In this document: piece after piece, positions 1 to 11,053 of the stretch
Numbering within the stretch: position 1 is the first letter of the stretch
Layout of the letters: the number at the start of each line of letters is the position of its first letter
Source of the DNA: a virus
Lineage: Duplodnaviria > Heunggongvirae > Uroviricota > Caudoviricetes
Virus record (IMG/VR): IMGVR_UViG_2585427766_000020
Coordinates: 1-11,053 of that record
Strand: one strand, 5' to 3'
Length of the DNA: 11,053 bases
The notes under the pieces: model-generated
The model's database searches: none
Told to the model about the DNA's origin: nothing
What the model saw: only the letters and a program-made list of their open reading frames with translations
Position numbers and translations under genes: made by a program

Positions 1-273
1 CCGACTGCGGCCTGAGTTTTTTAAGTGACGTAAAATCGTGTTGAGGCCAACGCCCATAATGCGGGCAGTTGCCCGGCATCCAACGCCATTCATGGCCATA
101 TCAATGATTTTCTGGTGCGTACCGGGTTGAGAAGCGGTGTAAGTGAACTGCAGTTGCCATGTTTTACGGCAGTGAGAGCAGAGATAGCGCTGATGTCCGG
201 CGGTGCTTTTGCCGTTACGCACCACCCCGTCAGTAGCTGAACAGGAGGGACAGCTGATAGAAACAGAAGCCAC
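1..273 (-). CDS. insA: IS1 InsA (transposition regulator), 91 codons; stop codon lies just outside the window
   Basis: Minus-strand translation from GTG at 271-273 gives [18 protein letters not shown]...[12 protein letters not shown], matching InsA as I remember it. The 90-302 ORF in the supplied track is a different frame and is not InsA. Confidence 0.88.
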
Positions 274-301
274 TGGAGCACCTCAAAAACACCATCATAC
301 A

Positions 302-1096
302 CTAAATCAGTAAGTTGGCAGCATCACCTGAAAACGCTTTGTGGATTTTACCCATTTCTTCGACTTTTGCAGCACGCAGTTGATCCATTACTTTGTCATA
401 AGAGAATCCAGAAGAGTAGATACGATACCCTTTCAGAAACTTTTCATGCAGACGCTGAATATTGTCCAGTAAATAAGCGAATACTAGAGGTGAATCAATT
501 CCATCACTAACTGCTTGGATACTTTCAATCAGAATATCTAGCTTCTGATCCTTATGGGTATCATCATTGAAACAAGCTATAAGGTTATCAAGATACTCTC
601 TTTGCAAATTTTGTACATTTTCTGCAGCGAAGTGCGGTAATAGCTTGATAACTTCTTTTTTCAGAAAAACTAACTGACAAGTTGAGTTATCAAAGTAGGC
701 CGCGGCCTCTTTTAGCAGGTTAACGAACTCGAGAATCTTCCGGTAGTTGCTGATGAAAACGGGGATATCTTCATCATCATTACGAAACTTTGTTTCTAGG
801 ATGAAGTAATTAGCTGGCTCAAGGCACTGATGCTTTGGAGCATTTAGCAATTTTTCATGGGTGGAAAACACAAGTCCCAGTCCACTCCGTGGTGACGTCA
901 CACGTAGGATGATCGTGTTACCTGGAGCGATAGTGCCTGTATCAATAGAAAGACCATATTCACGAGGATCATCAAGCAAAGTATCAACCAGATCACAATC
1001 GGACTGATCTAAGAGCAACAGCGAACCGACACGAAACCCCTCTTGGAATTCCATACGACGATACAGATCTGTCAGCATCTCAAATGAAATCGCCAC
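302..1096 (-). CDS. Hypothetical protein, second gene of the YejK-like operon; C-terminus truncated by IS1 (last 8 codons GDAANLLI + stop are encoded by the IS1 repeat)
   Basis: GTG start at 1094-1096 with GAGG Shine-Dalgarno 7 nt upstream, 2-nt gap to the upstream gene's stop (translational coupling). Low GC. No domain recognisable by eye. 302-328 is IS1 sequence. Confidence 0.7.
   Translation of the reverse strand: MAISFEMLTDLYRRMEFQEGFRVGSLLLLDQSDCDLVDTLLDDPREYGLSIDTGTIAPGNTIILRVTSPRSGLGLVFSTHEKLLNAPKHQCLEPANYFILETKFRNDDEDIPVFISNYRKILEFVNLLKEAAAYFDNSTCQLVFLKKEVIKLLPHFAAENVQNLQREYLDNLIACFNDDTHKDQKLDILIESIQAVSDGIDSPLVFAYLLDNIQRLHEKFLKGYRIYSSGFSYDKVMDQLRAAKVEEMGKIHKAFSGDAANLLI
306..328 (-). 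repeat. IS1 terminal inverted repeat (insA-proximal end, 23 bp)
   Basis: Direct read: atcagtaagttggcagcatcacc on the + strand, the reverse complement of the IS1 IR. Confidence 0.9.
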
Positions 1097-1098
1097 GA

Positions 1099-2106
1099 TT
1101 AAACCTCAGTCATCCACATTTCCCTAAATTCTTCAGGTACATTACGTAGGGTGATAATATTTGTTTCCGGATCATAATCAATATAGCCTTCAGTTTTCCC
1201 TTCCCGGTCAAACTTAAGTTCCCAATATTTAGACTTGCCTTTAAAAGATACCAGAGCCCGAATGACTCGACCATCAGGAACGAAGCCATCCGATAACTCC
1301 AACTCTTCAGCAGCAAGTTTACCAGATAACTCCTCGGGAGCCTGGGGCCAAATGGCATTAACAAGGGTTTCAAGACTAAGTGGTTCACCAGCCTTACTTA
1401 GTGCATGTAAGTGTTCAAACGCACTCTTAAGAAATGCATCTTTTTCAGCGCCGTCAAGTCCTTTCTCTGCCGCAAATGCTTTTAAAACGTCACGTAACTT
1501 TTCAGACTCTCGTTTGGCGATTAAGACATCATTACAGCCGAGGAACTGTTTAAAATAGTTTGAAACATTACCTTGCCCCTTAAGAAAACTGATATAGCGC
1601 TCTGCGCCACTTTCCCACGCGGTTAAGTCAATGCGCCCAGCCATACGCAGCTTAGCAATATCAAGATAGGTACTATCTTGGATGTTAAAATCATCTGTGA
1701 CAGTGGATCCAATGGTAGCGCTTACAATAGCTATCAACAGGTGTTCATTGTGTCCTATCACGATATTTGCAAAAAGAACATAACCACCAGTAGCCATGTT
1801 TTCTCGCTGAGAACGTTCCGTCAGGTGATGCATCATTCGGCAGGAACTTTGGTAGAAATCATCAACACCTTCGAGAAAGTCCCCAGCCATTCGTTCCATA
1901 GGATAGTTATCCGTATCGCCTTCAAAATAGCCATAACCTTTACCTGTGCGTCCTGCATATTTTGCACAAATATCGTTTATAAGGCGCTGGGAGGCTTCAG
2001 TAACTAGACCTTCTTCAGGACTCAATCTCTCAGAAGCGTCTCCATTTTGTTGTTTGTCTAAAATGTGAACTACAACGTGTTTAACTTCAATGGTCTGCTC
2101 AGACAT
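1099..2106 (-). CDS. YejK/NdpA-family (NA37) nucleoid-associated protein homolog, 335 aa, mobile-element-borne divergent copy
   Basis: Same length as E. coli YejK (335 aa). Core TYLDIAKLRMAGRIDLTAWESGAERYISFLKG matches the remembered YejK block [20 protein letters not shown]...RYLTFLKG; C-terminal YIDYDPETNIITL resembles IFWDPATDTLTI. SD AAGGTGGA 6 nt upstream of ATG. AT-rich codon usage unlike the neighbouring phage genes. Confidence 0.8.
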   Translation of the reverse strand: MSEQTIEVKHVVVHILDKQQNGDASERLSPEEGLVTEASQRLINDICAKYAGRTGKGYGYFEGDTDNYPMERMAGDFLEGVDDFYQSSCRMMHHLTERSQRENMATGGYVLFANIVIGHNEHLLIAIVSATIGSTVTDDFNIQDSTYLDIAKLRMAGRIDLTAWESGAERYISFLKGQGNVSNYFKQFLGCNDVLIAKRESEKLRDVLKAFAAEKGLDGAEKDAFLKSAFEHLHALSKAGEPLSLETLVNAIWPQAPEELSGKLAAEELELSDGFVPDGRVIRALVSFKGKSKYWELKFDREGKTEGYIDYDPETNIITLRNVPEEFREMWMTEV

Positions 2107-2176
2107 TAGCTATCCACCTTATTTTTTATTGCTTAATGGCAAATAATTTCTGCTATATGTTCTCGTTAGGAACACA

Positions 2177-2584
2177 TTAACCCACATTTTTTAACCGCTC
2201 AATCGTTGCGGATAATTCCTTCAGTTGTTTTTCCATCTCAATCACACGCTGTTTTTCTTCAGCGCCTCGCATGAGATCTCGCCGAACCTCAGGATCTAAC
2301 TGGTTTAGAAGTTCAAGCATTTTAAGGTCTGACGGGCTGAATTGATGTTGTGTTGGTACAGCAACAATTTCTTTAGATGGAATATGTTCTTTACCGGTAA
2401 GTAGCCAATCGATCGATACACCCAAATGGGTGCTTAGCGCAACAAGAGCCTCTGCGTTTGGTTCTCTCTCTCCACGCAAATAGTTTTGAAGTGAGCGATA
2501 TGGAATTTTTGATAAGTTAGATAATGCCTTTATTGTCATGCCATTAGCATCCATCACTTCACGCAATCTCTCTTTTGTACTCAT
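2177..2584 (-). CDS. Phage repressor, XRE/CI-type HTH DNA-binding protein (135 aa) with coiled-coil C-terminal half and no S24 peptidase domain
   Basis: MSTKERLREVMDANGMTIKALSNLSKIPYRSLQNYLRGEREPNAEALVALSTHLGVSIDWLL is a typical HTH_XRE fold signature. Leftward, divergent from the early operon. ATG at 2582-2584 chosen over the 2680 start, which would overlap the rightward gene and promoter. Confidence 0.8.
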   Translation of the reverse strand: MSTKERLREVMDANGMTIKALSNLSKIPYRSLQNYLRGEREPNAEALVALSTHLGVSIDWLLTGKEHIPSKEIVAVPTQHQFSPSDLKMLELLNQLDPEVRRDLMRGAEEKQRVIEMEKQLKELSATIERLKNVG

Positions 2585-2600
2585 TTGAACATATCTCAAT

Positions 2601-2628
2601 TTGACACACTCATTTGGGTGTGTACAAT
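2601..2628 (+). promoter_or_regulatory. Sigma70-type early promoter for the rightward operon: TTGACA (2601-2606), 16-bp spacer, TACAAT (2623-2628)
   Basis: Near-consensus hexamers read directly, about 45 bp upstream of the Cro/Ner-like start. Confidence 0.55.
2604..2623. promoter_or_regulatory. Candidate repressor operator: inverted repeat ACACAC-N8-GTGTGT inside the early promoter spacer
   Basis: Perfect 6-bp arms read directly; lies between -35 and -10 where a repressor would occlude RNA polymerase. Confidence 0.45.
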
Positions 2629-2672
2629 AGACCCAATAGAGTACATCATAACCTAACAGGAACACGGTGCAT

Positions 2673-2897
2673 ATGAACAAACAACAAGTTCGGGCACGGC
2701 TGGTTGAACGAGGCAGTAGCTTGCGCCAGTTCGCGCTTAACGCGGGCTATGAACCACGAACAGTCACCCAGGCAGTCAGTCGCTGGGCTGGTAAAAGTGA
2801 ACTACCTCGCGGTCGTTTGACTTATCGGATTTTGCGAGATCTATCGGTTGCAATAGGTAAAGAAGTTACCCCCGGTATCCTTAAGGAGGCGTCATGA
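2673..2897 (+). CDS. Cro/Ner-like small DNA-binding protein (about 74 aa)
   Basis: First rightward gene after the switch. RLVERGSSLRQFALNAGYEPRTVTQAVS resembles the Mu Ner HTH region in pattern. ATG 2673 preferred; GTG 2667 is an alternative. Stop overlaps the next start (ATGA at 2894-2897). Confidence 0.6.
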   Translation: MNKQQVRARLVERGSSLRQFALNAGYEPRTVTQAVSRWAGKSELPRGRLTYRILRDLSVAIGKEVTPGILKEAS

Positions 2898-3202
2898 ATA
2901 AACCAAATACATCAAGCTCAGGTACCCGTATTTTGCGCGTTCTTAAGGCCTTACGTGGCCACGCTTTGAACGGTGTTTCTAACGGGGAACTAGCGGTTGC
3001 ACTGCACGAATCACCGGCAAACATCAACCGGGCACTTAACACGCTCATTGAAGAAGGGTTGGCTCTGAAACTAGAAAACGGGCGTTTCGCACCAGGCATC
3101 CAGTTGCTGCAGATCGCCATGGCCCACAGTAACGAGATGGCACGTGCACAGGATCGCATTAACGAAATCAACCAACGTGTTATTTCAGGTAGTCGTTTGT
3201 AA
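2894..3202 (+). CDS. Winged-helix HTH DNA-binding protein (102 aa), hypothetical
   Basis: Strong SD AAGGAGG at 2883-2889. ILRVLKALRGHALNGVSNGELAVALHESPANINRALNTLIEEGLA looks like a MarR/IclR-type wHTH. Confidence 0.6.
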   Translation: MNKPNTSSSGTRILRVLKALRGHALNGVSNGELAVALHESPANINRALNTLIEEGLALKLENGRFAPGIQLLQIAMAHSNEMARAQDRINEINQRVISGSRL

Positions 3203-3212
3203 GGAGTAATCA

Positions 3213-4124
3213 ATGGGACGCACCAAATCACCGGTTAGCACTGAACTGAACGTCGAGGTACCGCTGTCGGATGATCTCAATGTCAGTCTAAACGCCATGA
3301 CACAGCATCGCATGGAAATCATGCAACAGTTCGGCGATGGTCTGCCCTATGAGCGCGATCGTGTTGTCCATGAGGCACGCTTTTATATGGCACAGAGCGC
3401 TGAGGCCATGCTGGAGGCAGGTAAGCGGCTGATAATCCTTAAGGAAAATGAACCACACGGGGAGTTTATAAAGATTCTTGAAAGTGAGTTGGGGCTGGCA
3501 TACCGGACATCTGTGAGAATGATGCAAGCATCGACAAAATACTTATCCCCGGCGCTGAAACCAAATGTGCCAACGTTGGCACATTTGGGAAAAGCCAAAC
3601 TTTTCGAATTAATGACAGAAGACGACGAAGAGCTTGCCGAACTGGCCGACGGCGGCACAGTTGCCGGCCTGACGCTTGACGACGTTGATCGCATGTCAGT
3701 ACGTGAATTGCGTCAGGCCCTGCGCGAAGCGCGCGAAACCAACGCAGCACAACAGCGCGTACTCGCTGACAAAAATGAAAAAATAGACTCACTCTCCACC
3801 AGACTGGAGAAGAAATCCCGTATTCAGCCGCCTGAGCCTGATGAAGAGGTTAAGAAGCTGCGGGCGGAAGTGACAGCATTAGCGGTTGAGGCGGAATCTG
3901 CTATCGCCGTTCGACTGTCCAGCGCTTTTGAGACGCTGTGCGCATATTGTGCTGAAAACATGATTGATACCCCCAGAGACTTCATGGCAGGCCTGGTCTG
4001 TCAACTGGAAAGCACAGCGCGTAGCCTGCGCTCCACATTTGACCTGCCGGATGAGCCAACAGGCAATGCCGCGCCTTCATGGCTGACTGAGCCGACGCCA
4101 CAGATTAACGGGCTGGAGGCATAA
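3213..4124 (+). CDS. Hypothetical coiled-coil protein (303 aa) located between the regulators and the transposase
   Basis: SD AAGGAG at 3201-3206. Long intact ORF in the operon; C-terminal half has heptad-like charged repeats. No family confidently recognised. Confidence 0.6.
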   Translation: MGRTKSPVSTELNVEVPLSDDLNVSLNAMTQHRMEIMQQFGDGLPYERDRVVHEARFYMAQSAEAMLEAGKRLIILKENEPHGEFIKILESELGLAYRTSVRMMQASTKYLSPALKPNVPTLAHLGKAKLFELMTEDDEELAELADGGTVAGLTLDDVDRMSVRELRQALREARETNAAQQRVLADKNEKIDSLSTRLEKKSRIQPPEPDEEVKKLRAEVTALAVEAESAIAVRLSSAFETLCAYCAENMIDTPRDFMAGLVCQLESTARSLRSTFDLPDEPTGNAAPSWLTEPTPQINGLEA

Positions 4125-4127
4125 CCA

Positions 4128-5897
4128 ATGAATGCTGCCCTGACTGAACGACTGGTTTATGTCGCCCGCGCGGCACGTGACGCGGGGCATGGTAAACGCG
4201 GTGCAATATACGACGCTGCCTGTGCTGAACTTGGCATGTCCCGCGCCACTCTGCTGCGCAGGCTGAAGGAGGTCTCTGTGACTGATAAACGCAAAAAACG
4301 CGCTGATGCCGGACGCAGCGCCCTGACCCGCGACGAAGCCGCGCTGATATCTGCCACACTGCGTGAGGCCACCCGCAAGAACGGTAAGCGTCTCTATTCC
4401 ATCGCGGATGCAGTGGAAACCCTGCGGGCTAACGGCTTTATCTCCGCAGGCAGAACAGATGAAACCACCGGTGAGTTTTTCCCGTTGTCCGAAGATGCCA
4501 TCAGTCGTGCCCTGCGTAACTATGGCCTGCACCCGGAACAACTGGATGCTCCTGCGCCGCATACCGAAGTGGCCAGTCTGCATCCCAATCATGTCTGGCA
4601 GATTGATGCCTCGCTCTGCACGCTTTACTACCTGAGCAATGGACACAAAGGGCTGCAGGTGATGGACAGCGCGAAGTTCTACAAGAACAAACCCGCTAAC
4701 CTTGCCCGTATCGCCAGTGACCGCGTGTGGAGTTACGAGATTACCGACCATGCCAGCGGCTGGATTTACGTTGAGTATGTGACGGGTGCGGAATCCGGTG
4801 AGAACCTGTGTTCTGTGCTTATCAACGCCATGCAGGAGCGTGGCGGCGCAGACGTGCTGCACGGCGTGCCAAAAATACTCTATCTCGACCCCGGTTCGGC
4901 AAACACCGCGGGTATGACGAAAAACATGTGCCGCTCACTGGGCATTGACCTGATAGCGCACAAGCCGCATAACGCCCGCGCCACCGGACAGGTGGAAAAG
5001 GCGCGTGACATTATCGAACGCAAGCTGGAGCCGGGTCTGAAGTTCCGGCCGGTTCACAGTCTGGAAGAACTCAACGCGCTGGCCGCGAAATGGCGCAGCC
5101 ACTTTAACGCCACGGCTGTTCACAGCCGCCACGGTAAAACCCGCACGGATATCTGGCTGAAGATTACTGCTGAGCAGCTGAAAAAAGCGCCTTCCGTTGA
5201 GGTATGTCGTGAACTGGCTGTGGCGGCACCAGAACTCCGCAAAGTCACGCCAAAACTTCGTGTCTCGTTCCGGGGCACTGAATTTGACGTATCAACGGTA
5301 CCGGGCGTACTGGTCGGTGAAAAACTGATGATTACCCGTAACCCGTGGCGCAGCGATGTGGCACAGGTGGTTCTGACCGGTGAGGACGGCCACGAGACGT
5401 TCTTCCTGGTCGAAGAGGTCAGAAAGAACGAGTTTGGCTTTGCTGAAGGCGCGGCGGTATTTGGCGAAAGTTACAAAGCCCTGCCGGAAACCCCGGCGCA
5501 GATGGCGGCAAAAGAAACCGAAGCGCTGGTCACCGGTACAGACAACGCCGCAGATGCAGCTGCCGCACGCAAGGCGAAGGCGCTGCCGTTCGGCGGGCGG
5601 CTTGACCCGTATAAACATATTGATGACGCCACACTTCCGGCCTATATGCCGAAGCGAGGTCAGGCCTCTGACGTACGCGGACCGCGCACTGAACAGCGTC
5701 CCATGACTCATGTGGAGGCCGCGAAAGCCCTGCGCGGGAAGTTCAGCGCCAACGGCCTTACCTGGACGCCGGAACATTACCGCCAGTTAACGGCACAGTA
5801 CCCGGACGGCGTACCGGAAGCCGCACTGGATGAAGTCATGGCCACGCTGACCACGCCGGCCCGCAGCAGTGTTATCAGCATTGTTAACGGCAACTGA
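4128..5897 (+). CDS. DDE transposase of a transposable phage (Mu A-like, rve/integrase-core family), 589 aa
   Basis: SD GGAGG at 4115-4119. HPNHVWQIDASLCTLYY is typical of the first catalytic-Asp region of rve-type transposases. Followed by a B-like ATPase and by gam, gemA-like and mor. Confidence 0.8.
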   Translation: MNAALTERLVYVARAARDAGHGKRGAIYDAACAELGMSRATLLRRLKEVSVTDKRKKRADAGRSALTRDEAALISATLREATRKNGKRLYSIADAVETLRANGFISAGRTDETTGEFFPLSEDAISRALRNYGLHPEQLDAPAPHTEVASLHPNHVWQIDASLCTLYYLSNGHKGLQVMDSAKFYKNKPANLARIASDRVWSYEITDHASGWIYVEYVTGAESGENLCSVLINAMQERGGADVLHGVPKILYLDPGSANTAGMTKNMCRSLGIDLIAHKPHNARATGQVEKARDIIERKLEPGLKFRPVHSLEELNALAAKWRSHFNATAVHSRHGKTRTDIWLKITAEQLKKAPSVEVCRELAVAAPELRKVTPKLRVSFRGTEFDVSTVPGVLVGEKLMITRNPWRSDVAQVVLTGEDGHETFFLVEEVRKNEFGFAEGAAVFGESYKALPETPAQMAAKETEALVTGTDNAADAAAARKAKALPFGGRLDPYKHIDDATLPAYMPKRGQASDVRGPRTEQRPMTHVEAAKALRGKFSANGLTWTPEHYRQLTAQYPDGVPEAALDEVMATLTTPARSSVISIVNGN

Positions 5898-5907
5898 GGA
5901 GGAAAAC

Positions 5908-7074
5908 ATGCTGGTACTGAAGCAGCAACTGAAAGAGGCCCGTATTTCACAGGCGGTGGTGGCGAGAGCTGTCGATGTTTCTGAGGCCACGCTGGCCCAG
6001 ATTGTGAATCATAACGCGTGGCCCCGCACCAGCCCCGGAGAAGTGCGCCGGCGTCTTGCGTCCTGGCTGGAAAGTCAGGGGATTGATACAGCGAAGAGTT
6101 TTGATGCTGTACAGGGCGCGGCCACGCCCCGTACATCGGGTACCACAGATAAAACGAGCCTCAGTGAGGAAGAGAATATGTTACTCAAAAAACAGGTGTT
6201 ATTTCCAGCAACCAAAAAAGCGTTTGGTCTTTTCCGTGACCCGTTCGCCGACGAAGCCATGCAGGGTTCTGATGATGTGTTCACCACCCCGGACATTCGC
6301 TACGTGCGTGAGGCGTTGTACCAGACAGCACGTCATGGTGGGTTTATGGCCGTCATCGGTGAGTCCGGTGCGGGTAAATCCACGCTGCGCCGTGACCTGA
6401 CTGAACGTATCAACCGCGAGAATGCGCCAGTGATTGTTATCGAGCCATACATCATCGCTATGGAAGACAACGATGTGAAAGGGAAAACTCTGAAGGCAGC
6501 AGCGATTGCCGAAGCCATTATCAGTACCATCGCACCACTGGAAAGCATCAGACGCAGTCAGGACGCCCGCTTTCGCCAGTTGCATCGCGTCCTGAAAGAC
6601 AGCAGCCAGGCGGGGTTCAGCCACGTTCTGGTGATTGAGGAGGCCCACAGTCTGCCCATTCCGACACTGAAACACCTCAAACGCTTTTTTGAGCTGGAGT
6701 CCGGTTTCAAAAAACTGCTGTCCATCGTGCTAATTGGTCAGCCGGAACTGGCGACAAAACTGTCTGAACGCAATATGGAAGTCCGTGAAGTCGTTCAGCG
6801 CTGTGAGGTGGTCGAACTTCTGCCTCTGGACAATAACCTTGAAGAATTTCTGACGTTCAAACTGCAACGGGCCGGTAAACAACTGACGGACATTATGGAC
6901 GCCAGCGCAGTGGATGCCATACGTGCCCGCCTGAGCAATCCGGGAAGTCATCGTAAAAATATGGTCAGCCTGCTGTATCCGCTGGCCGTCAGTAACCTGG
7001 TAATAGCCGCCATGAATCTGGCTGCTGAAATCGGGGTTCCACAGGTCAACGCTGACGTTGTCAAAGGGGTTTAA
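5908..7074 (+). CDS. AAA+ ATPase, transposition target-DNA activator (Mu B-like/TniB-like), 388 aa
   Basis: SD GAGGAGG at 5896-5902, ATG 5908. N-terminal HTH-like segment, then Walker A GESGAGKST and Walker B-like HVLVIEEAH. Sits immediately after the transposase as in Mu A-B. Confidence 0.8.
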   Translation: MLVLKQQLKEARISQAVVARAVDVSEATLAQIVNHNAWPRTSPGEVRRRLASWLESQGIDTAKSFDAVQGAATPRTSGTTDKTSLSEEENMLLKKQVLFPATKKAFGLFRDPFADEAMQGSDDVFTTPDIRYVREALYQTARHGGFMAVIGESGAGKSTLRRDLTERINRENAPVIVIEPYIIAMEDNDVKGKTLKAAAIAEAIISTIAPLESIRRSQDARFRQLHRVLKDSSQAGFSHVLVIEEAHSLPIPTLKHLKRFFELESGFKKLLSIVLIGQPELATKLSERNMEVREVVQRCEVVELLPLDNNLEEFLTFKLQRAGKQLTDIMDASAVDAIRARLSNPGSHRKNMVSLLYPLAVSNLVIAAMNLAAEIGVPQVNADVVKGV

Positions 7075-7076
7075 TA

Positions 7077-7346
7077 ATGAAATCCACCACAGGTATCAAC
7101 CAGCAAATCAGCAAAGTGCAGTCAGCCATTATGGCGCTTAAGGCGACGAACACGGATGTACAAAGCATCACCATCAGGGGGAACAAACCTGTCATCCGCG
7201 TTTCCCGGAGTGCGCATTGCATGCGCATGCTTGAGCAGGGAAAGGCCTGTTATCTGTATACCGGACATGACCACAGGGGATATTTCCGTCAGGGCGTTTT
7301 CGAACTGCACGGCTGTCGCGTCGTGTGGCCGGAATCTTTGTGGTAA
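7077..7346 (+). CDS. Hypothetical early protein (89 aa)
   Basis: Intact ORF 2 nt after the B-like stop, same strand and operon. No family recognised. Confidence 0.5.
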   Translation: MKSTTGINQQISKVQSAIMALKATNTDVQSITIRGNKPVIRVSRSAHCMRMLEQGKACYLYTGHDHRGYFRQGVFELHGCRVVWPESLW

Positions 7347-7373
7347 TCAGCACAACCGGAGAAATCATAAAAA

Positions 7374-7904
7374 ATGGCAAAAAGTACAAAAGGTGCAAAA
7401 CGTATCAAGGCCGCAGCAGCACTCTGGGTGCCGGGGACACGTGAAGAGGTCATTGAGGGCATCAGACTGCTCGGTGACGCACACCGTGAACTGGTCAGGG
7501 CTGAAACAGAAATGAATGACGCCATTGGCGATATCACCGCACGTTATGCCCCGCTCACCGAGAGCCTGAAAAAACGCATGGCCGAACTGCAGTCCGGTAT
7601 TCAGACATGGTGTGAGGCACACCGTGATGAACTGACCGGCAACGGGAAGGTGAAGTTCGCTAACCTCACCACCGGCGAGGTGCAGTGGCGAAACCGTCCG
7701 CCATCAGTCAGTATCCGTGGGGCGGATAATGTTATTGAATTACTGAGACGTCTGGGGCTTGAGCGCTTTATCCGTGTAAAGGAGGAAATAAATAAAGACG
7801 CTATCCTGAATGAAAAGGACGCCGTGAAAAATATTCCCGGTATTACCATAAAAAGTGATATTGAGGATTTTTCAATAATTCCTTTTGAGCAGGATGTGCA
7901 GTAA
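7374..7904 (+). CDS. gam: Host-nuclease inhibitor protein Gam (Mu Gam family; binds DNA ends, protects against RecBCD)
   Basis: 176 aa. Blocks ETEMNDAI, WCEA.RDELT, PPSVSIRG and GIT.KS.IEDFSIIPFEQ match Mu Gam (174 aa) as I remember it. Confidence 0.9.
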   Translation: MAKSTKGAKRIKAAAALWVPGTREEVIEGIRLLGDAHRELVRAETEMNDAIGDITARYAPLTESLKKRMAELQSGIQTWCEAHRDELTGNGKVKFANLTTGEVQWRNRPPSVSIRGADNVIELLRRLGLERFIRVKEEINKDAILNEKDAVKNIPGITIKSDIEDFSIIPFEQDVQ

Positions 7905-8001
7905 ACACACCACGTTAATTATTTAATAAAAACATTTTCTTTTTTATTCCGGCGTCAGCGCCGTGGGCTTCTGCACGCCGGAAACAGAGGAGAATTAAAT
8001 T

Positions 8002-8196
8002 ATGATATTTAAATGTATTCAGTGCGAGAGGGATATAACAGCCCTGCGTTTTCACAGCGCCATCGCCGTGATGTCCGGTAAATACCACATCCCTGCGGTA
8101 CGCGTCACCCTGGTCTGCCCGTACTGCAGCCAGCATTTTTCGGCAGACGTGCCCGTCATGGAATTCTCCCGCCCTGACAGGGAGGACTCGCAATGA
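8002..8196 (+). CDS. Small zinc-ribbon-like protein (64 aa), hypothetical
   Basis: Two CxxC pairs (CIQC...CPYC). SD GAGGAG at 7987-7992. Stop overlaps the next start. Confidence 0.5.
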   Translation: MIFKCIQCERDITALRFHSAIAVMSGKYHIPAVRVTLVCPYCSQHFSADVPVMEFSRPDREDSQ

Positions 8197-8465
8197 TTAC
8201 CCCACAGGAAGCACGACAGCGCACCCGAACCCTTGTTGAACACTATGTCAACGAGTGTGAATGCCGCGACCTCACCGATGTGAAGCACGTCCTGACGGCG
8301 CTAATCAGCATGACCGCTCAGGCCATTGTGGCGACCAACGGAAAGGCGGCTGCCCTGCAGGTACTGGTGAACACACTAACCCACACGGCAGCGCATGAGG
8401 TGCCGTACCGGATGGAAACCACTGCAGAAGGCGGTCTGCACATCACCGTCAGCCGGAATCACTGA
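8193..8465 (+). CDS. Hypothetical protein (90 aa)
   Basis: ATGA start/stop overlap with the upstream gene; GC-rich coding-like composition. No family recognised. Confidence 0.5.
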   Translation: MITPQEARQRTRTLVEHYVNECECRDLTDVKHVLTALISMTAQAIVATNGKAAALQVLVNTLTHTAAHEVPYRMETTAEGGLHITVSRNH

Positions 8466-8474
8466 GGGCGCAGC

Positions 8475-8780
8475 ATGACACGGTACACCATACTCACCCG
8501 CACCGCCCTCTACCGTCTGGCCCTGCAGCGTTTCGGGCCGGACGCACAGGCCCTGAAACTGACAGAAGAGGCCGCTGAACTGGCAGCCTGTGCTGCCCGC
8601 AACCTGAACGGACAGGGCAGTGAAAGTGACCTCGCGGCAGAGCTGGCAGACGTGGAAATCATGACAGAGCAGTTGCGCCTTCAGGGGATGGACCGGCTGA
8701 TTGACTTCCACAAACAGAAAAAACTGGAACGCCTTGCCGCACGGCTGGGCGTCATGTACACCGGAGATACTGAACAATGA
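8475..8780 (+). CDS. MazG-like nucleotide pyrophosphohydrolase family protein (101 aa)
   Basis: LKLTEEAAELAACAARNL...ESDLAAELADVEIM resembles the EExxE / ELADV helical signature of small MazG-like all-alpha NTP pyrophosphatases. Assignment from motif pattern only. Confidence 0.6.
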   Translation: MTRYTILTRTALYRLALQRFGPDAQALKLTEEAAELAACAARNLNGQGSESDLAAELADVEIMTEQLRLQGMDRLIDFHKQKKLERLAARLGVMYTGDTEQ

Positions 8781-9460
8781 CAGACTTGGATAAACACATT
8801 GAAAAACTGAAAAAGTTGCTGGCGCTGGCAGCATCCGGCAACCCGTATGAGGCTGCTCTGGCACTGCGCCGCGCCCGTAAACTGATGGATGTTCACGGCA
8901 TCACACATTCCGACATTGCCATGAGTGATATTGATGAAACCATCAGTCATTACTGGCCGACAGGCAGTCTCCGTCCACCGCGCTACATGCTGGGCCTGAT
9001 GAACATCATCCGCGAGGCATTTGGTGTTAACTCCATAATTCACCCCGGCACATATCCGGGTGTGGGGTTCTACGGCAACCGGGAACGGGCCGCACTGGCT
9101 GCGTACACCTGGGAAGTGCTGGCCCGCCAGCTGAAAAAGGCGCGTCAGCAGTATATCAGCGCACAGAACAAAAGAATAAAAACTGCCACCCGTACCAGCC
9201 GTGGTGACCAGTTTGCTGAAGGCTGGGTGCTGGCCGTTATCAGTGAAATACAGTCCTTCGCCCTGACCGATGACGAACGTGAACTGATGCAGCAGTGGCT
9301 GGAACATAAATACCCGCAGACGCAAACCACCAGGGCGCGTAAACCGGGAAGAAGCCGCAATGGCGACGCCTCGCGCTATGCGGGGTTTCGTGAAGGGCAG
9401 AACGTCAGACTGCACCGCCCGGTCAGTGGGCAGGAACAACAGAAACTGGAGGCCAGATGA
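8777..9460 (+). CDS. DUF2786-like phage protein (227 aa)
   Basis: N-terminal IEKLKKLLALAASGNPYEAALALRRARKLM is the characteristic DUF2786 motif, common in Mu-like and other phages. ATGA overlap with the upstream stop. Confidence 0.65.
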   Translation: MTDLDKHIEKLKKLLALAASGNPYEAALALRRARKLMDVHGITHSDIAMSDIDETISHYWPTGSLRPPRYMLGLMNIIREAFGVNSIIHPGTYPGVGFYGNRERAALAAYTWEVLARQLKKARQQYISAQNKRIKTATRTSRGDQFAEGWVLAVISEIQSFALTDDERELMQQWLEHKYPQTQTTRARKPGRSRNGDASRYAGFREGQNVRLHRPVSGQEQQKLEAR

Positions 9461-9687
9461 TTACGCTATCAGGTAACAGCCGGAAATTAAAAGCCTGCCG
9501 AATATCTGCCAGATACCTTTTTGCCCGCGCCTTTTTTAAGAACGTAAGGCCGGGGATCACAATTGGTGTTATTGCCGGACGCGAACAGGTTGAAAAATAC
9601 ATGTCAGGTGCATGGTGGAATAACGACCCTGTCATTGCTGCCCGTAATATTCATATCAGTTGGGGGGATATTCAGAATGACGGCTGA
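9457..9687 (+). CDS. Hypothetical protein (76 aa)
   Basis: ATGA overlap with upstream gene; in-operon ORF. Confidence 0.45.
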   Translation: MITLSGNSRKLKACRISARYLFARAFFKNVRPGITIGVIAGREQVEKYMSGAWWNNDPVIAARNIHISWGDIQNDG

Positions 9688-9892
9688 ATCTGTTGTATGT
9701 GCCCTGTTCTGGTATTGTTTTGTCGGTTGGTGTACTGCTGAACTGCACCGCCGTTCAGGGTTTTATTCACGTTACAGTGGTGCCGGCTACTGGATTAGCT
9801 GGTCGGTGATGTTCCTGTGCTGGCCTGTGGCGCTTCCTTTATATGTCGATTATATCGGTGGCGCAGGTAAAAGGAGCAACGATGATGACTAA
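9677..9892 (+). CDS. Small membrane protein with two predicted transmembrane segments (about 71 aa)
   Basis: Internal ATG at 9677 of the 9563-9892 ORF chosen to minimise overlap. Hydrophobic stretches VVCALFWYCFVGWC and YWISWSVMFLCWPVALPLYV. Confidence 0.45.
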   Translation: MTAESVVCALFWYCFVGWCTAELHRRSGFYSRYSGAGYWISWSVMFLCWPVALPLYVDYIGGAGKRSNDDD

Positions 9893-10334
9893 ACAACGTC
9901 TTATCCAGCTCATTCATATTGCCCGTAATGAACTGGGTATGGATGAAGACACCTACCGCCAGATGTTACAGGGGCTGACCGGTAAAGCCTCAACCAAAGG
10001 AATGGATACCACACAACTAAACTGCGTGCTGGAATCCATGAAAAGGAAAGGCTTTCGCGTTAAGCCTGCCAGAAAAGCCAGCTCCGGTTTACCGCTGGAT
10101 AACCATCCGCAGTCCAGGAAAATCCGTGCGCTATGGCTTGAAATGGCTGCTGCCGGCATTGTTCGTGACCGTTCAGAAAATGCATTAGCGCGGTGGATCA
10201 AGCGGGAAACGGGCATCAGCGCCCTGCGCTGGCTCAATACTGAACAGGCAAGCAGTGTTATTGAGAAACTGAAGAAGTGGCAGCACAGAGCTGCGGGAGT
10301 AAAACATGAGCGACCTGAATCAGTTTCGAAGTAA
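9882..10334 (+). CDS. gemA: GemA/gp16-like protein (Mu-like prophage gp16 family, DUF1018)
   Basis: SD AAGGAG at 9871-9876, ATG 9882. RLIQLIHIARNELGMDEDTYRQMLQGLTGKAS matches the remembered N-terminal signature of the Mu gp16/GemA family. Sits immediately upstream of mor as in Mu. Confidence 0.7.
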   Translation: MMTKQRLIQLIHIARNELGMDEDTYRQMLQGLTGKASTKGMDTTQLNCVLESMKRKGFRVKPARKASSGLPLDNHPQSRKIRALWLEMAAAGIVRDRSENALARWIKRETGISALRWLNTEQASSVIEKLKKWQHRAAGVKHERPESVSK

Positions 10335-10695
10335 AGGGCCGGAACTCCTGGTGGAACTGGCACAGCATACCTCTGAGACCGTTCGCGAGATTATTGATAT
10401 TGAGCCCGCAATTGCCGACCAGATTGGTCAGGCCGTCGCGAACCGCATGATGCAGGTCTGGGGCGGGCAAAACGTTTATTTCCCGATGGGCATGGTATGG
10501 AAGGTCAGTCAGCGCGACCGGGAAATCTTCAGGGAGTTTAACGGACGTAACCACCATGAACTGGCCCGCAAATTTGGTGTTTCGCTTCAGTGGGTCTACA
10601 GCGTGGTTAAGCGGGTAAGAAAAGAAGAACTGGATCGGATGCAGGGCAAGCTATTTGCTGATGAACCCGATGTAGATACGGAGAAAAAAGAGTAA
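10306..10695 (+). CDS. mor: Middle operon regulator Mor (Mor/C family transcription activator), 129 aa
   Basis: Same length as Mu Mor. VYFP and FNGRNHHELARKFGVSLQWVYSVVKRVRK match the Mor/C-family conserved FNGRN...Y and HTH region. Overlaps the gemA-like 3' end by 29 nt. Confidence 0.85.
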   Translation: MSDLNQFRSKGPELLVELAQHTSETVREIIDIEPAIADQIGQAVANRMMQVWGGQNVYFPMGMVWKVSQRDREIFREFNGRNHHELARKFGVSLQWVYSVVKRVRKEELDRMQGKLFADEPDVDTEKKE

Positions 10696-10724
10696 TATCT
10701 GCAATCAGGCTGGAGCGAGTTCTG

Positions 10725-11053
<329 letters not shown>

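Follow-up and report, generated by a model that had tools for sequence, protein, structure and literature searches.

A GC-poor segment beside the repressor of a BcepMu-type Escherichia coli prophage as the probable remnant of a mobile two-gene anti-phage cassette

Introduction

Does an abrupt drop in the guanine plus cytosine (GC) content of a prophage mark genes that were acquired separately from the phage backbone? This question is raised by the virus record IMGVR_UViG_2585427766_000020 (Caudoviricetes), positions 1 to 11,053 of which were analysed here and are called the window (11,053 nucleotides, nt). A first-pass annotation of this DNA had reported a sharp discontinuity in base composition around a two-gene module at 329-2176 and had taken the module as a moron-type acquisition distinct from the phage backbone. 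We found that the window holds part of a BcepMu-type transposable prophage of Escherichia coli, and that the slot for cargo directly 3′ of the prophage repressor gene probably (at a rough probability of 0.72) holds, at 329-2156, the remnant of a mobile two-gene anti-phage cassette. The first gene of the cassette encodes a nucleoid-associated protein (NAP), and the second encodes a putative membrane effector that is cut by an insertion sequence (IS1). The features of this part of the window are as follows (aa, amino acids; GC3, GC content at third codon positions; HTH, helix-turn-helix).

1 to 328, minus strand: end of an IS1 copy (51.7% GC), with the terminal inverted repeat at 306-328 and an InsA frame from 273 to the window edge
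329 to 1096, minus strand: effector gene, truncated to codons 1-256 of 401, Pag2B-like and DS-1 component-2-like (40.9% GC)
1099 to 2106, minus strand: intact NAP gene, 335 aa, YejK/NA37 family, putative sensor, Pag2A-like and DS-1 component-1-like (42.7% GC, GC3 0.35)
2107 to 2176, minus strand: spacer of 70 nt from the repressor stop to the NAP start (31% GC), with the Shine-Dalgarno sequence AAGGTGGA and the right cassette breakpoint 2156/2157
2177 to 2584, minus strand: repressor gene, c-like HTH protein of 135 aa, part of the backbone immunity region (Pfam HTH_3 and Phage_CI_repr)
2585 to 2897, plus strand: divergent promoter region and ner-like gene (2673-2897), containing a compositional change point at ~2690

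Distribution and acquisition of the cassette

An intact relative of the prophage was found in E. coli RIVM_C036569 (L001; NZ_CP086627, with the gene pair at 1584186-1586401), and it is 100% identical to the window over the matched 328-2700. Its gene order is virion and lysis genes, a convergent adenine DNA methyltransferase gene (dam), the 401-aa effector gene (L001 11564-12769), the NAP gene, the repressor gene and the outward-reading early arm. Counted by its transposase, the backbone occurs in 639 of 5426 complete E. coli genomes (~12%), whereas the cassette occurs in 19 genomes, which is ~3% of the backbone-carrying E. coli genomes.

The slot between repressor and dam differs among close relatives. 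For instance, the KP12-type relatives (L003/KP12) have the same repressor type (78% nt identity over the gene and 81.6% over a wider 548-nt match) and carry an unrelated single 175-aa gene in the slot. In this comparison, homology ends 19 nt short of the dam stop codon and returns 20 nt beyond that of the repressor. The right breakpoint is window 2156/2157 (resumption at L001 13830, which is window 2157), and the left breakpoint is the 3′ end of dam. Meanwhile, in the ST131-type relatives the slot is empty, in a river isolate it is taken by a Flk_N-like gene of 328 aa and a 193-aa gene, and in a Pectobacterium relative Flk_N-like and 314-aa genes are stacked ahead of the NAP pair.

Furthermore, the same pair was found in other elements. 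It lies between the Q antiterminator and the lysis genes in lambdoid prophages of Proteus, Salmonella and Citrobacter, and between int/xis and recT in a Plesiomonas prophage. It is also present in Sinorhizobium phage phi2LM21, on a Pseudomonas conjugative plasmid, and in a Paraburkholderia genomic island near a Mrr-like nuclease. The order and the tight spacing of the two genes are kept in 10 other contexts. In addition, the pair was measured against its flanks in three phage backgrounds, and its GC content was lower in each, by 4-17 points (Mu-like in E. coli, lambdoid in Proteus and in Salmonella; the three comparisons of pair with flanks gave 0.33 vs 0.37-0.41, 0.38 vs 0.48-0.49 and 0.41 vs 0.54-0.58).

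Because the cassette is carried by so few of the backbones, the slot is otherwise filled or empty, and the pair occurs in unrelated elements, we conclude that the two genes were acquired separately. As in a moron, the cassette is present, absent or replaced at one position in close relatives, and its composition is distinct from that of the backbone, though the backbone repressor shares the low GC. Thus, the moron-type acquisition proposed in the first-pass annotation is upheld by comparative genomics, and GC content alone neither proves it nor sets its border.

The acquisition is not recent, because a second E. coli lineage (L004) carries the cassette at 91-93% nt identity, with third-position changes 4-9 times as frequent as those at positions 1 and 2. 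This divergence is comparable to that of the backbone. The pattern shows that the cassette diverged along with the phage under purifying selection.

The wider interval from repressor to holin was also compared among relatives (L003 3827-5982, L017 1832-3154, L018 2342-4514 and L019 4331-5871). Its occupants include the 175-aa protein, a DUF2441 protein, the pair of Flk_N-like 328-aa and 193-aa proteins, and small open reading frames (ORFs) in the ST131 type. All measured occupants had a GC content below the backbone. No known defence family was matched by the occupants in the libraries scanned, and the PADLOC scan covered only some of them. Tentatively, this interval may be a dedicated defence-cargo hotspot of the prophage family, although we give this idea somewhat less than an even chance. 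If it is true, the remaining occupants would be anti-phage genes not yet described, and the repressor transcript would express them. In addition, a NAP sensor of nucleoid destruction would suit a phage whose replication proceeds by transposition into an intact chromosome, so it would not be triggered by the phage itself.

Base composition of the GC-poor stretch

The contrast in the first-pass annotation was drawn from two 60-nt lines, and both counts are exact (33.3% GC at 481-540 and 56.7% at 4261-4320). However, 481-540 is an extreme line and the contrast was overstated, since the 60-nt lines of 329-2176 average 41.6% GC and span 28%-52%. The transposase gene has 58.6% GC as a whole, and its lines average 58.8%. 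Over the full stretches, GC content is 41.5% at 329-2176 and 54.1% over the rest of the element at 2681-10700 (chi-square, p = 2e-22). A sliding-window calculation and a tetranucleotide comparison had been proposed as checks, and both were run, the latter against the phage backbone. Just 3% of the 300-nt windows in the rest of the element reach down to the GC content of the highest module window, and an entropy segmentation also set the GC-poor part off from the rest. GC3 is 0.35-0.39 in the cassette genes, 0.5-0.68 in the backbone genes and 0.56-0.57 in the adjoining host genes. For the tetranucleotide comparison the GC-poor block was taken from the intact relative L001 (cassette, repressor and adjoining spacers). 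Its correlation with the backbone was r = 0.52-0.54, below the 0.68-0.83 of size-matched backbone chunks.

The AT-rich segment might be flanking host DNA, or the contrast might be a sampling fluctuation of the 60-nt counts. The value of 33% does come from one extreme line in a module with such a wide span. Moreover, the left part of the window ends in an IS element, so that the position of the segment relative to the prophage is hidden within the window. Nevertheless, the GC difference extends over 1.8 kb at the p value given above, and the segmentation score is 6.5 times the best shuffle. Intact relatives carry the cassette inside the phage, with the repressor on one side and the dam, lysis and virion genes on the other, and the prophage lies at different chromosomal sites. 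We rejected flanking host DNA on these last two grounds, and consider this explanation as a whole extremely improbable.

The discontinuity is real, and its limits were misplaced. The segmentation gave a single strong change point at ~2690 (score 91, shuffle maximum 14). It lies ~500 nt beyond the limit of 2176, in the stretch of divergent promoters that separates repressor and ner. The repressor gene had been called intermediate in composition, which did not hold: its GC content of 40.7-41.4% and GC3 of 0.34 are the same as those of the module (chi-square about 0). In the intact relatives, the GC-poor block extends leftward to the 3′ end of the convergent dam gene. The repressor alleles of relatives have 41-46% GC, and the alternative cargo genes 42-43%. 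Because the backbone repressor is equally AT-rich, and the repressors and cargos of relatives are likewise GC-poor, what the GC step delimits is a wider hypervariable block, made up of cargo and immunity genes and reaching window ~2690-2893, and not the module alone. The left edge at 329 is not a border of acquisition either. It is the end of the IS1 copy, and the junction lies inside the second gene, which had been missed.

These results bear on a second explanation, in which low GC is a property of the whole immunity and regulatory region, AT-rich and often recombined, and the two genes are not a separate acquisition. The repressor and the divergent promoter region indeed match the cassette in AT-richness, the one strong change point is that at ~2690, and the repressor alleles of relatives are all GC-poor. 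Furthermore, against the closest backbones (flanks 96-99% identical) the non-homologous block runs to window 2893 and takes in repressor and ner. Homology to the ST131-type relative and the river isolate starts at window 2893-2894, with 96-99% identity elsewhere. However, within one immunity type the cassette alone is swapped (between the breakpoint 2156/2157 and the dam 3′ end), and the pair occurs without this repressor in unrelated phages and plasmids. We consider this explanation unlikely. It accounts for the position of the GC step and not for the origin of the cassette, and in this sense both hold. The comparisons reveal mosaicism at two nested levels. At the outer level, which the GC step follows, immunity genes and cargo are exchanged as one block, and at the inner level the cargo cassette is exchanged among phages of one immunity type. 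Thus, a GC step in a prophage can rightly flag accessory cargo and yet misplace its borders, and comparative breakpoints are needed.

The IS1 junction and the truncated effector gene

The window begins inside an IS1 copy. The translation of 273 to 1 matches the Pfam InsA N- and C-terminal domains (1e-21 and 5e-31), and the IS1 part of the window has a median of 10 matching places per E. coli genome. Homology to the intact relatives begins at 328/329. The junction is the end of IS1 and not a natural edge of the cassette, and it cuts the effector after codon 256. The truncated frame continues 8 codons into IS1 and stops at 302, giving the fusion tail GDAANLLI.

The cut splits the motif that is best conserved in the effector family, between KAFS and DIQN. 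The window allele keeps only the acidic soluble N-domain, and all three hydrophobic helices are gone. Consequently, the window copy can make at most the sensor and a soluble stump. With every membrane helix lost to IS1, the effector is probably inactive, and this copy most likely does not work as a defence.

The truncated allele (255 aa) recurs in other E. coli assemblies (protein cluster P0026, 27 member sequences; one carrier of the allele is GCA_012619285.1), and one contig is 100% identical to window 331-11053. The IS1 junction was not found in any complete E. coli genome of the collection. This recurrent IS1-truncated allele provides a natural effector-null variant.

The two cassette proteins

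The NAP matches Pfam NA37 at 1e-80 over residues 12-327 and belongs to PHROG 3767. It scores 186 bits against the NCBIfam YejK model, which has a cut-off of 341. In addition, it aligns end to end (residues 4-330) with a solved YejK structure (9be2_A, 7e-30). Its stop lies 2 nt ahead of the effector start, which is within the gap of under 40 bp that defines the bicistronic type II PANGU systems, and the protein is a YejK-like (NA37) NAP as in those systems.

The 401-aa effector matches PHROG 5023 at 6e-143. Its hydrophobic segments in the full-length relative are at 262-280, 285-311 and 356-378, and the N-domain (residues 1-256) has an isoelectric point of 5.0 and a net charge of -11. In the AlphaFold2 model (pLDDT, the predicted local distance difference test, 83), four long helices come after an N-domain of alpha/beta type. 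The full-length protein is consistent with an acidic N-domain joined to a C-terminal transmembrane region, and DNA mimicry by this N-domain is putative. Pfam gave nothing for this protein beyond a sub-threshold match to a transmembrane anchor, and the profile of the effector family had no match among the PDB sequences. In the alignment of the effector family, the most conserved stretch is at residues 223-275, GYR.F.SGFSYDKV...KVEEMGKIHK.FSDIQNQILGIPVA. It joins the soluble domain to the first membrane helix and is a candidate switch region.

Relation to anti-phage systems and proposed mechanism

Both proteins match models built from a validated anti-phage system. The NAP matches NCBIfam NF053868, DS1_1_antiphage ("nucleoid-associated anti-phage protein"), at 1.4e-17 (63.7 bits, cut-off 330), and the effector matches NF053869, DS1_2_antiphage ("anti-phage protein"), at 3e-21 (75.9 bits, cut-off 315). 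The Salmonella and Proteus pairs match the same two models. DS-1 was found by DefensePredictor as a two-gene system with a YejK domain in the E. coli pangenome, and was experimentally validated against phage (PMC13092281). Its proteins are WP_000355468.1 and WP_000150292.1, and its NAP has 391 aa with NA37 at residues 42-382 (PMC13092281, Table S8). Type II PANGU consists of the YejK-like NAP Pag2A and of Pag2B, whose N-domain is an acidic DNA mimic and whose C-terminal domain is transmembrane (10.64898/2026.04.06.716658). Both genes are needed, the NAP leaves the nucleoid when the host DNA is broken down by T4, and the infection is aborted (10.64898/2026.04.06.716658).

We infer that the pair works like type II PANGU and DS-1. 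By this analogy, the YejK-like NAP would coat the host nucleoid, and it would be set free when a lytic phage degrades the host DNA. The freed NAP would bind the acidic N-domain of the membrane-anchored effector, whose transmembrane helices would then damage the membrane, so that infection is aborted by death or arrest of the cell.

Several points weigh against reading 329-2156 as the remnant of an anti-phage cassette of this kind. Low GC by itself cannot tell the cassette from the repressor gene. The homology to DS-1 is significant but remote and does not amount to membership of DS-1 proper, because both scores are far below the equivalog cut-offs. PADLOC 2023 had no match for either protein, and a fold search with the effector model returned generic helical-bundle matches only. 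The likeness to Pag2A and Pag2B of the tested PANGU-Ecu operon was set by architecture and description, not by sequence alignment, and the activation of Pag2B by Pag2A is not explained in the PANGU preprint (10.64898/2026.04.06.716658). Regarding expression, scans for promoters and terminators were at chance level in four contexts, and co-transcription with the repressor was deduced solely from the absence of a terminator. We treat the pair as a distinct, remotely related subfamily (PHROGs 3767 and 5023).

Alternatively, the pair may serve the phage itself, with the NAP organising or silencing DNA of prophage or host during transposition and the membrane protein helping to time lysis or to exclude superinfecting phages. 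In favour of such a role, transposition of the Mu type relies on nucleoid proteins of the host. Furthermore, the slot adjoins the lysis genes, and lambdoid phages carry the pair between Q and holin. However, the pair is dispensable for the phage, being present in only 19 of the 639 backbones, and it also resides on a plasmid and in a non-phage island beside a restriction-type nuclease. Together with the matches to the DS-1 models, these occurrences make a service to the phage improbable, and we prefer the anti-phage cassette.

Expression of the cassette

A promoter-like sequence, TTGACA-16-TACAAT, lies at 2601-2628 in the divergent promoter region. The 70-nt spacer between repressor and NAP contained no promoter-like or terminator-like site in the scan, which included minus-strand terminator hairpins. 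In Proteus and Plesiomonas the pair does have terminator-like hairpins after it, and the scan counts were near chance. Because the spacer has a good Shine-Dalgarno sequence and no terminator, and the cassette genes are 2 nt apart, the cassette is expected to be read through from the repressor promoter. The repressor is probably the first gene of a leftward transcript shared with the cassette, and in this phage such read-through is more likely than a promoter of the cassette's own. In a lysogen, the repressor promoter would drive repressor, NAP and effector as one leftward transcript, much as rexAB is transcribed along with lambda cI.

The transposable prophage backbone

The rest of the window is the early arm of the prophage and its junction with the host chromosome. 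The features below come from Pfam matches and the annotation of the intact relative.

2894 to 10856, plus strand: early/transposition arm of the BcepMu-type prophage (54% GC)
within 2894 to 10856, plus strand: HTH and DUF3102 genes (Pfam)
4128 to 5897, plus strand: DDE transposase (Pfam rve)
5908 to 7074, plus strand: ATPase B (Pfam AAA_22)
7374 to 7904, plus strand: Gam (Pfam Phage_Mu_Gam)
between Gam and Mor, plus strand: small ORFs, GemA-like (Pfam and annotation of the relative)
10306 to 10695, plus strand: Mor (Pfam Mor)
10856: element terminus, ending in TAATCA, where homology to three relatives at other chromosomal sites ends exactly
10857 to 11053, minus strand: 5′ portion of host dkgA, which the prophage end breaks off at ~codon 66 (ORF 10850-11053)

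The ORF at 10850-11053 is one that we take to be E. coli DkgA. Copies of the element in different strains lie in dkgA, hyf, ycaL/cmk and flgE and share an identical last base. One terminus at unrelated sites is the signature of transposition and points to random transposition. The DDE transposase, ATPase B, Gam, Mor, the terminus ending in CA and the unrelated insertion sites are together those of Mu/BcepMu-type phages. The gene order of the intact relative shows that the early arm is inverted relative to Mu and that the module is internal to the phage. BcepMu has the same inverted layout. An inverted left part of this kind was described for KS10 (PMC2628397).

A transposase 95-99% identical to that at 4128-5897 is encoded in 616 complete E. 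coli genomes, O25b:H4-ST131 included, so that this Mu-like prophage family is a common one in the species.

A second GC dip (41%) lies at 7651-8100, over the 3′ end of gam and the spacer after it. Meanwhile, the KP12-type relatives have a DUF3164 gene in place of gam, and homology to them breaks between window 7318 and 7933. The early arm thus has a further mosaic joint here.

The dam gene of the intact relative (L001 10804-11574) is convergent and lies just 3′ of the NAP-effector pair, with an overlap of 11 nt. An adenine DNA methyltransferase gene is likewise convergent and directly 3′ of the pair in Sinorhizobium phage phi2LM21 (L012 2882-3718). This adjacency may be a coincidence, because the E. 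coli dam belongs to the backbone and is present without the pair.

In addition, the entry OM835952.1 ("Klebsiella phage KP12 clone KP12_2") holds the sequence of a Mu-like transposable phage, although it is filed under Vequintavirinae. In the region shown, its genes are laid out as in the prophage of E. coli CFSAN051542, almost coordinate for coordinate. The contig probably derives from a prophage that was induced or co-purified, and not from a Vequintavirus.

Comparison with known systems

Our results place a member of the NAP-sensor defence family (DS-1 and PANGU type II) as the cargo of a transposable prophage, where it is probably co-expressed with the repressor. They do not change the current understanding and offer a tidy example of a recently recognised anti-phage class. 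Furthermore, the repressor-to-holin interval of a common E. coli prophage family is a place to look for defence genes.

The backbone agrees with the BcepMu/KS10-type phages in its DDE transposase, ATPase B, Gam, Mor, terminal CA, unrelated insertion sites, and internal repressor and lysis genes. It differs in forming an E. coli lineage with a hypervariable repressor-to-holin interval, and the copy in the window is broken by IS1.

Like DS-1, the pair comprises two genes in the E. coli accessory genome, one of which encodes a YejK-domain protein, and the DS-1 models were matched over most of their length. However, the NAP of DS-1 has 391 aa and ~40 residues ahead of the NA37 domain, and the NAP here has 335 aa.

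The likeness to type II PANGU lies in a bicistronic unit with the NAP first and a partner with an acidic soluble N-domain and a C-terminal transmembrane region. Both occur in E. coli and on mobile elements, and the proposed logic is the same, namely that a NAP coming off the degraded nucleoid would act on a membrane effector. Nevertheless, the pair described here is transposable-prophage cargo 3′ of a repressor, whereas the word "prophage" is absent from the main text of the preprint, and the window copy is without the transmembrane part.

Compared with the morons of lambdoid phages, the cassette differs in that no promoter or terminator of its own is demonstrable in the Mu-like context. A parallel in position is lambda rexAB. 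As with rexAB, the cassette is an AT-rich, non-essential accessory unit just 3′ of the repressor, probably expressed in the lysogen and present in some relatives, and its likely outcome is abortive infection by a membrane protein that is switched on by a cytoplasmic sensor. However, the two units are without sequence similarity, and the sensor here would be a nucleoid protein instead of RexA.

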